The notes beneath the pieces are model-generated. The model saw nothing but the letters and a program-made list of their open reading frames with translations. It ran no database searches and was not told the DNA's origin. Position numbers and translations under genes: made by a program. 64,000 bases of DNA from Enterobacteria phage ECP2307, in sequence record PP461118.1. One strand, written 5' to 3'. Within the stretch, counting starts at the first letter, position 1, and every line of letters starts with the position of its first letter. Of this stretch, positions 1 through 1,000 are shown one piece after another.

Positions 1-1000
1 GGTAGCCCTTAACATCCCTGTAACATCCCCTTTGCAGAATTTTAAAATATCATTAACAATCTCTTAACAGCTACTACAACCTCTTAACATCTCTTCAGGG
101 GTCTTAACAGATTCTTAACAAAACTAACAAGGCTGTAACAAGTTCTTAACAGTTGCTACATGGTCTTTACAGAACCTTAACAGATGACTAACAAGAGCTA
201 ACAAGTTAATTTTTAAGAGTTATTTTGTTAAGATAATTAACAAGTTCCTAACAAGTATTTAATCTTTTTAACAAGCTATTAACACGGTCACTATCTCTTT
301 TCTTATCGTTCCCTCTCTTTCTTAGTGATTCTCTAAATAGCCCTTTTAAAAGCTCTCTATAGCTCCTTGTAAGCTCTTTTAAGCCTCTTCCTAGTAATTA
401 CACCCCCAACTATACAGACACCTATTTATAAGGCTTTACAGGAGCTTTAAAGGCTATGTCAAAGACTCTTACAAGGCTTTTACGTGGTTTTAACAGAGAT
501 TTAACAAGGGGCTAACAAGTTGCTAACAAATGCCTTAAAAGCATAACTATGTAGGGATTGTTAAGAAATTGTTAAGAAAATGTTAAGGGGGCTAGCATTT
601 ACGTAACTTTTAAACACCTTTTACGTAACTTTGAAGTGACTTTATAGCCCCTATAACATACTTTTAAGACACTAACAAGCCCTTTTTAGTAGTTCACAAG
701 ATAACTAACGAGATGATAAAGCTTACACCCTTATAAGATTCTTTTAAGGCTCTAGGAAGCTTTATAAAGGGCTTTTAAGGGTGAGGTAATGCAATCCCTT
801 AAGTTAGGTTGATAAGGCTGTTATAGGGCTTTATAGAGCGTTTAAACGGTTGCCCTTCCCTTTCGGGTTATGGGCTTATATTTAAGTTGATTTGATAAAA
901 GGTTATAGAGTAAGCTATAGAGTTATTGCTTTTAAGGTCTAGTAAGATTCTGGAAAGGAAAGGAAAGGGATTGTATAGAGGCTATTACATAGACGTAAAA
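1..1000. repeat. non-coding array of more than 25 CTTAACA / TAACAAG-like heptamer repeats (iteron-like), with inverted TGTTAAG copies near 557-590
   Basis: Direct reading: motif recurs every 8-25 bp; no convincing ORF on either strand. Confidence 0.6.

Follow-up and report, generated by a model that had tools for sequence, protein, structure and literature searches.

The recognition of genome junctions, the double cutting and the duplication of the repeat in phages with short exact direct terminal repeats (DTRs) are poorly understood, even for T7. The ends of T7 DNA are characterized by arrays of the heptamer CCTAAAG, named SRL and SRR in the T7 literature. Specifically, bases 1-470 of T7 contain 11 copies of CCTAAAG and 17 of TAAAG, with none on the other strand. 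To our knowledge, the function of these heptamer arrays was never established, and none has been assigned to the short repeats at T7 ends since they were first sequenced; consequently, an analogy with T7 carries no mechanism with it. Repeated elements are also found in terminase sites of other packaging systems, such as the R sites of lambda cosB (gpNu1), the TGATCA/G hexamers flanking the cut at P1 pac and the pacL and pacR boxes of SPP1, for which bending or wrapping of the DNA around an oligomeric small terminase has been proposed. In addition, the T5 genome possesses a "repeat region 3" at the inner edge of its 10-kb terminal repeat (Davison, bioRxiv 10.1101/866236).

A further array of this kind opens the 64,000-nucleotide stretch of Enterobacteria phage ECP2307 DNA analysed here (PP461118.1; hereafter, the window). 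Bases 1-592 contain 25 TAACA cores, 21 on the plus and 4 on the minus strand, versus 2.4±1.5 (maximum 10) in 2000 dinucleotide-preserving shuffles of the same bases, so that the motif array seen in a preliminary description of this DNA is real and above expectation. The longer forms behave likewise: TTAACA is found 17 times versus 0.9 in shuffles, CTTAACA 11 times versus 0.25 and TAACAAG nine times versus 0.24. Outside bases 1-592 the density of TAACA is 3.0 per kb, both strands summed, and the next-richest 592-bp stretch in the rest of the 64 kb holds nine copies, within tail-fibre coding sequence. A TAACA-rich region at 47.8-48.4 kb was considered as a second array and rejected, since it lies inside a tail-fibre ORF of 792 aa and consists of codon repeats. 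The only intergenic part of that region is a mini-array of three sites at 47776-47810.

The same preliminary description had given the array a length of one kilobase, more than 25 copies in one orientation and a recurrence near 36.7 kb, and these three points need correction, the last of them as detailed further below. The TAACA array stops at base 592 and is followed by two plus-strand copies only (654 and 673). Exact plus-strand cores number 21 in 1-592 and 23 in 1-1000, and the higher count is reached only if degenerate copies, for example TTTACA, are included. The inverted copies reported near 557-590 are indeed present, at 559-565, 570-576 and 581-587, with one more at 226-230, and the region is non-coding as stated: no ORF of at least 40 aa occurs in 1-1000, and no Rfam family is matched at or near its gathering score, the single match reaching 14 bits versus a threshold of 100 bits. 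Accordingly, a coding or RNA gene within the array was rejected, also because indels of 1, 11 and 22 nt, which are not multiples of three, are frequent.

The main array (9-284, plus strand) is composed of 17 exact TAACA cores with the consensus yTTAACAAG, all in the same orientation, starting at 10, 21, 54, 65, 85, 105, 116, 125, 136, 147, 178, 189, 199, 238, 249, 269 and 280. It includes an unstranded palindrome, TTGTTAAG-ATAA-TTAACAAG (225-244), which holds the sole internal inverted copy, is invariant in a 12-genome alignment and sits within the most AT-rich stretch of the repeat (201-245). A central segment without TAACA follows (329-480, plus strand), whose units, 10-11 bp long, belong to a second motif family: CTCTAAATAG, CTCTATAG, CTCTTTTAAG, GCTTTACAGG and GCTTTAAAGG. 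A second plus-strand array (489-529) has four TAACA cores exactly 11 bp apart, at 491, 502, 513 and 524; deletions of 11 or 22 bp set relatives apart in this stretch. Finally, three inverted copies, TGTTAAG on the minus strand (556-587), start at 559, 570 and 581, again 11 bp apart, and face inward from the right end of the repeat. These last copies are kept in 25-31 of 33 distinct DTRs, and Kolesnikvirus shows the same layout.

By comparison with relatives that are 90-95% identical, bases 1-592 are identified as the left copy of the DTR of a Felix O1-like myovirus (Ounavirinae), unstranded, with the window start as the physical left end; the right genome end lies outside the 64-kb window. Homologous repeats occur at both record ends in relatives. 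In particular, the D4 and SPJ41 records carry exact repeats of 581 and 613 bp at both ends, which start with GGTAGCCCTTAACA and end with TGTTAAGGGGGC, corresponding to window 1-592; the HP1 record has a 570-bp repeat at both ends, annotated as repeat_region, and that of M7 (Kolesnikvirus) an exact repeat of 444 bp at both ends. Experimentally, a 608-bp DTR was reported for UAB_Phi87 by Bal31 digestion and run-off sequencing (Bardina et al. 2016, PMC4837284), and DTRs were assigned by PhageTerm to D4, E9 and I14.1 (PMC11737134). Window bases 1-600 align with UAB_Phi87 over their full length with 90% identity, and the boundaries fall on matching sequences. The ends of the relatives are fixed and non-permuted: the D4, I14.1 and SPJ41 records open or close at window base 1, that of GE_vB_7A at base 3, and those of E9, SLAM_phiST56, Ro111lw and NBEco005 end at base 1. 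Permuted or circular records (Felix O1, Moogle, SUSP2, P54 and others) show a single repeat copy between convergent genes. In other words, the relatives have the repeat at both ends, at fixed positions and in one copy per genome unit, and the suggestion of the preliminary description that this could be a packaging or terminal-repeat region was right.

The DTR itself is thus an already known element. The accessible text of the UAB_Phi87 and D4/E9/I14.1 papers gives the existence and length of the repeat, with no mention of an internal array, its phasing or inverted boundary elements, and no description of the TTAACA array was found in the accessible parts of the literature searched. The label "repeat_region" is given in some GenBank records to the three inverted copies only; in some, small spurious ORFs are called inside the repeat, and many records are opened arbitrarily. 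From the present mapping, annotators gain exact genome ends for the Felix O1-like group.

Both ends of the repeat are marked by the same element. TAGCCC followed by TTAACA after zero to two bases occurs exactly twice in 64 kb (expected 0.01), in inverted orientation: as TAGCCCTTAACA at 3-14 on the plus strand, which includes the first inward-facing motif copy, and as TAGCCCCCTTAACA at 581-594 on the minus strand, where the DTR ends at 592 as in D4 and SPJ41. The boundary elements are symmetric, with two inward-facing copies at the left putative cut, three at the right one, and a matched TAGCCC..TTAACA element at each. Across 12 aligned genomes no variation is seen in GGTAGCCCTTAACA, in the 13 bases that precede it in relatives (TGTATATCTGCTT) or in the outer flanks of both boundaries. 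The boundary flanks can be recognised even in Kolesnikvirus, where homology predicts for M7 a DTR of 439 bp, within 5 bp of the 444 bp found. Since the reported ends are 2-6 nt apart between studies, an exact symmetry of the two cuts is not demonstrated; for instance, 608 bp were reported for UAB_Phi87 versus 614 bp by boundary mapping, and the D4 end is 4 nt short of a perfectly symmetric cut.

The array between these boundaries is non-random, conserved and helically phased. Its core spacings are 9, 10, 11, 20 and 31 bp, averaging 10.3 bp with no fixed repeating unit, and the main array has a period of 10.3 bp (R=0.82), a value matched by none of 2000 random placements. The best period is again 10.3 bp (R ~0.83) in all 31 DTRs from outside Kolesnikvirus, and 9.95 bp in the two from Kolesnikvirus; the power spectrum of bases 301-600 peaks at 11.1 bp. 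Helically spaced core pairs outside the terminal region are at chance level. Across 33 distinct DTRs, most copies of the main array are present in 29-33, and core columns have 90% pairwise identity versus 75% for spacers, a gap exceeding that of all 591 circular shifts of the mask. In the 12-genome alignment, cores and spacers have 93% versus 78% identity and 83% versus 48% invariant columns. Moreover, indels relative to the window, single-base ones aside, cluster in two sizes, 11 nt with 27 cases and 21-23 nt with 19, and thus keep the phase. The DTR lengths measured in relatives fall near 570, 580, 591, 602 and 613 bp, and BLAST matches to window 1-600 span near 577, 588, 599, 610, 621 and 632 bp. 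That cores are better conserved than spacers, are helically phased and are kept in phase by indels gives good, if indirect, support to another proposal of the preliminary description, namely that the tract may be an array of binding sites for a DNA-binding protein.

The motif array also extends to phages with otherwise diverged DNA, namely Erwinia Kolesnikvirus and Pectobacterium phage Wc4. Between genera, the amino-acid identity of the neighbouring protein drops to 47%, with the DTR DNA at about 77%. BLAST, with a sensitivity of about 65-70%, misses genera in which the motif persists, and Erwinia phage Rouille, which carries the array and a large terminase (TerL) 69% identical, is absent from the BLAST hits. 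A search for more distant relatives through the flanking protein returned only the same set of about 253 genomes. For PaP1, with a TerL 41% identical, no k-mer array was detected in the first 1.3 kb of the record, a stretch that may or may not include its 1190-bp repeat.

With respect to the systems described above, the CCTAAAG arrays of T7 are the closest analogue: both phages have a non-permuted genome with DTRs and a T7-type replisome, and both carry a 7-bp motif in many copies and one orientation at the terminal repeat. However, three T7 copies lie inside the 160-bp repeat and the main array just outside it, whereas the ECP2307 array fills the repeat; T7 spacing is mostly 13 bp and non-helical, versus 10.3 bp in ECP2307; no inverted copies occur on the other strand in the first 1000 bases of T7, and the motif sequences are unrelated. 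ECP2307 is a myovirus of the Ounavirinae and T7 belongs to the Autographiviridae, and the resemblance is one of layout only. With the lambda, P1 and SPP1 sites the locus shares several short motif copies flanking a terminase cut, in both orientations around the cleavage point, the terminase role in ECP2307 being putative. It differs in scale and packaging mode, since cos or headful packaging relies there on 3-7 copies within 100-200 bp, whereas ECP2307 has about 25 copies, an exact repeat of 592 bp and two cuts. GATC is absent from the genome, bases 1-1000 included, which makes a P1-like control by GATC methylation impossible. Like T5 repeat region 3, the locus combines direct and inverted repeats in a conserved, untranslated tract across a terminal-repeat boundary, and is better conserved than neighbouring genes; the T5 repeats are longer (66-131 bp, nine DRD units) and contain DnaA boxes, which ECP2307 lacks, and the T5 tract is linked to a two-step DNA injection, of which no report was found for Felix O1-like phages.

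We lean, with some reserve, towards a function of the array as a cis-acting platform of protein-binding sites for the terminase-driven cutting of concatemers and the duplication of the DTR. From the layout of the locus we infer protein binding, the terminase as the binding protein and a nick-and-displace mechanism. The repeat sits within a gap of about 1.7 kb, putatively silent in transcription, that separates convergent gene arrays, with the TTAACA copies as putative protein-binding sites on one face of the helix, 21 forward copies running rightward from the left boundary and three inverted copies pointing inward from the right one. In replicated concatemers, one repeat copy would lie between genomes. 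An oligomeric recognition protein may then coat or wrap the array and thereby place the large terminase, or a nuclease, which would nick one strand at each boundary, the top strand on the left and the bottom strand on the right; strand-displacement synthesis across the repeat could finally provide each daughter genome with a full copy. Staggered nicking is the classical model for T7-type terminal repeats. It is also conceivable that cutting needs no more than the invariant boundary flanks, in which case the internal array would have another role.

A candidate for the recognition protein is a small-terminase-like DUF5681 protein encoded outside the window, proposed purely by its gene neighbourhood. 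In each of two unrelated contigs, a distant DUF5681 gene overlaps the beginning of a TerL gene. In Felix O1 the gene, ORF41, is some 8 kb away from the repeat and some 9 kb from TerL, and its product is syntenic in Rouille with 58% identity. The AF2 model of the protein is poor (pLDDT 67); Foldseek against the PDB gave no match with E below 4, and a phmmer search of PDB sequences gave none at all. TerL is likewise absent from the window; that of Felix O1 is of the Terminase_6N/6C type, and its nearer relatives include those of Kolesnikvirus (DTR of about 438-444 bp) and PaP1 (terminal redundancy of 1190 bp). As two genome papers had called the small terminase missing, the DUF5681 protein would provide a candidate for it.

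A more specific and unlikely extension is that the array operates as a nucleosome-like ruler. Here, every TAACA core would be a minor-groove docking site for the N-terminal, AT-hook-like GRP arm of a single subunit in a DUF5681 oligomer, and the DNA, wrapped with one face towards stacked rings or a filament, would be nicked at both ends of the wrapped segment, so that the length of the repeat is set in whole helical turns. Such a measurement by a protein array would account for DTR lengths that differ among relatives in 11-bp steps. If true, it would represent a new way to measure and duplicate a terminal repeat, and would provide a function for the short-repeat arrays of T7-type phages. The Felix O1-like phages, widely used in Salmonella typing, biocontrol and therapy and with more than 250 genomes available, offer a natural experiment on how DTRs are recognised and duplicated, with a highly conserved phased array coinciding exactly with the repeat, symmetric boundaries, length variants in whole turns and the candidate small terminase.

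Other functions have to be weighed against a terminase platform. Being part of the DTR, the array lies on both genome ends, and a virion-borne, early phage or host architectural protein might be recruited to it after ejection, for protection from RecBCD-type exonucleases, anchoring or pacing of DNA entry, or end-to-end synapsis for concatemers. The restriction of the array to the terminal region and the inward-facing copies that begin both physical ends would fit this possibility, as would the untranslated repeat arrays kept by T5-like phages at the inner edge of the terminal repeat, discussed as an injection-stop or DnaA-binding region, and the suggestion of the Bas63 (Felixounavirus) authors, in the accessible text, that this phage has no RecBCD inhibitor. 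The accessible part of the PhageMaP essentiality data for Bas63 does not mention genome ends. We consider such end binding rather unlikely, because concatemers and the inner junction are the only places where the invariant TGTATATCTGCTT outside the left boundary borders the repeat, and this points to the processing of replicated DNA and not of incoming ends. In addition, most copies have the same orientation at both ends, making the ends non-equivalent beyond the first 30 bp, and neither exact IHF-consensus sites in 1-600 nor DnaA boxes or Chi sites in 1-1000 were found. The array units are one mismatch from the IHF consensus, which follows from the construction of the pattern. A replication origin, either with short iterons or as a transcription and priming zone, is less probable still. 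Direct repeats in helical phase and an AT-rich centre (201-245, besides a further AT-rich stretch at 31-60) are what an origin could offer, 8-bp repeats do serve P4-type origins, and T7 carries secondary origins close to its ends. However, about 25 copies of a 7-8-bp unit over 590 bp are unlike the usual 3-7 iterons of 17-22 bp, no DnaA box occurs in 1-1000 even with a relaxed pattern, and no iteron-binding initiator was seen among the larger ORFs scanned or the genes flanking the array, which encode small hypothetical proteins. The replication genes of the window (family A polymerase, gp4-like primase-helicase and ligase) point instead to a T7-like replisome, and the cumulative GC-skew minimum and the strand switch are at about 36.5 kb, away from the ends. 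An origin would also have no need for an array that coincides to the base with the DTR and flips orientation exactly at its boundary. The iteron-type origin is, therefore, the one option of the preliminary description that is poorly supported, the terminal repeat and, indirectly, the putative binding-site array being retained.

A transcriptional element is very improbable, whether as a group of weak promoters, as a sink for RNA polymerase or as an operator array for a phage regulator. TTAACA is one mismatch from the sigma-70 -35 consensus TTGACA, and seven promoter-like sites occur in 1-1400 versus 3.6±1.7 in shuffles, several with TTAACA or GTAACA as the first hexamer; yet every one of them is weak (9 of 12 matches), and convergent terminators enclose the tract, with no gene downstream that such promoters could serve. 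Furthermore, the conserved part extends to TAACA-A/G-G and not to a -35/-10 pair, and the motif shows no clustering near 36.7 kb, where the real control region lies. Equally hard to sustain is the view that the array is a neutral by-product of slippage or unequal recombination in a recombination-prone terminal repeat. Slippage would indeed give the 11-bp-unit length differences observed between relatives, but it would not account for cores conserved well above spacers, for individual copies at homologous positions in 29-33 of 33 DTRs, for spacings that average 10.3 bp with no fixed unit, or for the retention of the motif in genera beyond the reach of BLAST.

The tract that follows the DTR (593-1000, unstranded) is present at the left end only. 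It is a conserved non-coding flank, with 75-93% pairwise identity over most 50-bp blocks in three genera and no ORF, and contains a conserved GC hairpin (852-875) and the second-family motifs CTTTTAAG, CTTATAAG and CTTTATAG. The end of the leftward gene array (1002-1047, minus strand) is the right limit of the non-coding tract. An intrinsic minus-strand terminator occupies 1002-1019, another GC hairpin follows at 1032-1047, and the first gene, also on the minus strand, covers 1058-1306, in agreement with the earlier placement of the array just beyond the terminators of the early genes. The second family, CTTTTAAG or CTNTWWAG, is clustered only at 300-1000 and at 36400-36950. The latter, an unstranded divergent control region at the strand switch and the GC-skew minimum, lies outside the TTAACA array and contains seven copies of CTNTWWAG. 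The recurrence claimed at 36668-36924 consequently holds for the second family (CTTTTAAG) and not for TTAACA, of which two TAACA cores are found there, a chance-level number.

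The first 592 bp of the window are the direct terminal repeat (DTR) of a Felix O1-like phage. In BLAST comparisons, window 1-1100 matches about 255 phage records at 75-95% identity, nearly all of them Felix O1-like myoviruses of the genera Felixounavirus, Mooglevirus and Suspvirus (subfamily Ounavirinae). The records of the relatives D4, I14.1 and SPJ41 open or close at window base 1, and that of GE_vB_7A at base 3, so that the start of the window corresponds to the left physical genome end as treated in those records; base 1 is also a record end in E9, SLAM_phiST56, Ro111lw and NBEco005. 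In particular, D4 carries an exact copy of 581 bp, and SPJ41 one of 613 bp, at each end of its record, in both cases with GGTAGCCCTTAACA as first and TGTTAAGGGGGC as last bases, and the record of HP1 bears an annotated terminal repeat_region of 570 bp. In records opened elsewhere, a single copy of the repeat lies midway in a gene-free tract of about 1.7 kb, flanked by two convergent gene arrays with a terminator at the end of each. Among the options raised in the preliminary description, the terminal-repeat region is thus the correct one. A DTR is already known in this phage group: the DTRs of D4, E9 and I14.1 were called with PhageTerm by their authors (PMC11737134), and a 608-bp DTR of UAB_Phi87 was determined through Bal31 digestion and run-off sequencing by Bardina et al. 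(PMC4837284), who cite similar repeats in Felix O1 and FO1a. Whichard et al. inferred short terminal repeats of Felix O1 from genome size.

Inside the repeat, the core TAACA, shared by the motifs TTAACA, CTTAACA and TAACAAG, occurs 25 times (21 copies on the + strand and 4 on the - strand), against 2.4±1.5 copies (maximum 10) in 2000 dinucleotide-preserving shuffles of 1-592, and the three longer motifs are enriched 18- to 44-fold over the shuffles. Elsewhere in the window TAACA has a density of 3.0 per kb, both strands counted together, the richest other 592-bp window holds 9 copies, inside tail-fibre coding sequence, and pairs 9-12 bp apart occur beyond the terminal region at chance level only. 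The region contains no ORF of at least 40 aa and no credible Rfam match, and it is limited by a minus-strand terminator at 1002-1019, followed by a second hairpin at 1032-1047 and by the first gene at 1058-1306. Given these counts, the lack of an ORF and the terminator at the end, the earlier view of a real, non-coding repeat array was right in kind. Its extent, placed at 1-1000, holds in part: the array stops at 592, and bases 593-1000 are a separate non-coding stretch, conserved too. A sole intergenic mini-array of the terminal motif away from the genome end is found at 47776-47810 on the + strand (TTAACA, TTAACA and TCAACA, 11 bp apart), in a short gap after a 792-aa tail-fibre ORF.

The copies are conserved beyond their surroundings. 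In an alignment of 12 genomes from three genera, the columns of the TAACA cores have a pairwise identity of 93%, and 83% of them are invariant, versus 78% and 48% for the other DTR columns. When 33 distinct DTRs are considered, a set that takes in IMG/VR contigs and Kolesnikvirus, the cores stand at 90% pairwise identity versus 75% for the remaining columns, a difference that was never reached when the core mask was shifted circularly (591 shifts), and most single copies are present in 29-33 of the 33. The protein encoded beside the tract, on the other hand, is only 47% identical between genera, versus about 77% for the DNA of the DTR. The spacing is also constrained: the 17 forward copies in 10-284 follow a 10.3-bp phase (Rayleigh R 0.82, not reached in 2000 random placements), with local spacings of 9, 10, 11, 20 and 31 bp whose mean is the helical repeat and which have no fixed unit. 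The same phase is found, with a median R of 0.83, in all the Felixouna-, Moogle- and Suspvirus DTRs examined. Single-base events aside, the sizes of indels against the window group at 11 nt (n=27) and 21-23 nt (n=19); measured DTR lengths fall near 570, 580, 591, 602 and 613 bp, and BLAST match spans over window 1-600 near 577, 588, 599, 610, 621 and 632 bp. The array extends to Erwinia phage Rouille (Kolesnikvirus), which is absent from the BLAST matches and has a large terminase (TerL) 69% identical: its syntenic convergent gap has the same TCTTAACA array, with 31 cores in 1.47 kb versus 57 in the remaining 16.9 kb. Pectobacterium phage Wc4 has the array as well, with 23 cores in 1.26 kb versus 2.6 per kb. 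Conservation, phasing, whole-turn indels and breadth are, at the level of sequence comparison, evidence that the TAACA copies are functional sites.

The limits of the repeat are marked in a symmetric manner. The element TAGCCC-N0-2-TTAACA occurs exactly twice in 64 kb (0.01 expected), at 3-14 (+ strand) and 581-594 (- strand), that is, at both DTR boundaries and reading inward at each. Copies that face inward stand next to each end, two after the left one and three before the right one, 11 bp apart in each set. The outer flanks, TGTATATCTGCTT upstream of base 1 in the relatives and TAGCATTTACGTAAC past 592, are invariant in the aligned genomes and still recognisable in Kolesnikvirus, where boundary homology predicts a repeat of 439 bp; in M7 the two ends of the record share an exact repeat of 444 bp, of which 438-442 bp stand at the start of other Erwinia phage records. 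As reported ends differ by 2-6 nt between studies, the exact symmetry of the two cuts is not established.

In the classical model of T7-type ends, a top-strand nick at the left boundary and a bottom-strand nick at the right one are followed by strand-displacement synthesis. Applied here, the concatemer would hold a single repeat between genomes, and strand displacement across it from the two nicks would leave each daughter with a full copy. Such staggered geometry calls for the same recognition sequence, inverted, at the two boundaries, as is observed. We infer that the internal phased array would be the loading platform of a putative oligomeric recognition protein, which might bind one helix face or wrap the DNA and so position the nuclease. 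Lambda cosB, P1 pac and SPP1 pac, with repeated small-terminase sites around the cut, are functional precedents. A likely candidate for the small terminase is Felix O1 ORF41, a 123-aa DUF5681 protein encoded outside the window (NC_005282 21665-22036; 8326-8697 of the 23.7-kb Felix O1 stretch L018). Distant DUF5681 genes overlap TerL gene starts in two unrelated metagenomic phage contigs, and a third is placed likewise, ahead of a 470-aa protein without Pfam match; in Felix O1, a tRNA/HNH island lies between the DUF5681 gene and TerL. An N-terminal FKKGQSGNPxGRPKGSRN motif is invariant in the family, its GRP core resembling that of AT-hooks, and Rouille encodes a homologue 58% identical in the syntenic place. 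The predicted structure of ORF41 was too poor for comparison. In the Felix O1 and UAB_Phi87 (PMC4837284) genome papers, the small terminase is stated as not identified.

Other functions have to be weighed against terminase recognition. A role in binding or protecting the ends fits an array confined to the terminal region, with two ends that look alike, and the authors on Bas63 suggest that this phage is without a RecBCD inhibitor; however, such a role leaves unexplained why sequence bordering the repeat in concatemers only is conserved. The iteron-type origin proposed at first is weakly supported and disfavoured, as the replisome is T7-like, no initiator gene was seen among the larger ORFs scanned or beside the array, no DnaA boxes were found in 1-1000, the units differ from iterons in size and number, and the array shares the limits of the DTR to the base. 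Only weak matches to the consensus speak for a promoter-like or regulatory element, and the tract offers nothing to transcribe. Neutral slippage would explain the length variants in 11-bp steps, but not the conserved cores, positions and phase.

The array is real, and the element belongs to a known kind, of which it is a variant. In the searchable literature no description of an array inside the DTR was found, and a few GenBank records place a repeat_region on the three inverted copies only. The nearest analogue is T7, with a similar layout: a check of its sequence finds 11 CCTAAAG (17 TAAAG) copies on a single strand in 1-470, three within the 160-bp repeat and the others just beyond, mostly 13 bp apart. 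The array is thus inside the repeat here and beside it in T7, the spacing is helical here and 13 bp there, and further differences are the motif and the inverted copies at the boundaries. In T5-like phages, an untranslated tract of repeats spans the inner edge of the 10-kb terminal repeat and is conserved (bioRxiv 10.1101/866236). The value of the present case lies in an unusually clean comparative signal, made up of phasing, indels of whole turns, symmetric boundaries and conservation across the subfamily, through which the mechanism of terminal-repeat recognition can be tested.

The terminal motif had also been thought to recur in the divergent control region at 36668-36924. TTAACA has only two copies there, and what recurs is a second family, CTTTTAAG / CTTATAAG / CTTTATAG (CTNTWWAG), clustered in the 64 kb only at 300-1000 and 36400-36950 (7 copies per 400 bp versus a mean of 0.5). 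Next to the terminal repeat of Rouille, the corresponding flank has CTTAGAAG in its place. CTNTWWAG may be recognised by a second DNA-binding protein that would serve both the genome end and the divergent control region, where the strand switch lies. Most aligned relatives also keep a hairpin rich in GC that lies at 852-875, in the gene-free stretch beside the repeat, and reads GCCCTTCCCTTTCGGGTTATGGGC, with TTATATTT coming next. Palindromic mini-insertions of 22-24 nt, with the core TTGGTAACAATACCAA or, in a second type, GATTCGATAGAATCTATC, occur in the terminal non-coding tract of seven relatives (L008, L013, L014, L015, L016, L007 and L001), at positions that vary by genome, and none is present in the window genome; their pattern points to a small element of a mobile or hairpin kind.

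Two further features concern the genome at large. GATC has no site in window 1-64000, versus about 182 expected from shuffles or 222 from a Markov estimate, and no other 4-base palindrome is comparably depleted; it is also wholly absent from the Felix O1 stretch and from the 18.4-kb Rouille stretch L020, and its absence was reported before in VpaE1 and Alf5 (PMC4690856, PMC5477317). Between the small minus-strand genes of 1304-7110 lie two families of intergenic cassettes of 90-105 nt, in six and five copies, each reading as a ribosome-binding site plus start codon at one end and as a hairpin rich in GC at the opposite end; these are probably the direct repeats of Felix O1 listed by Whichard et al.
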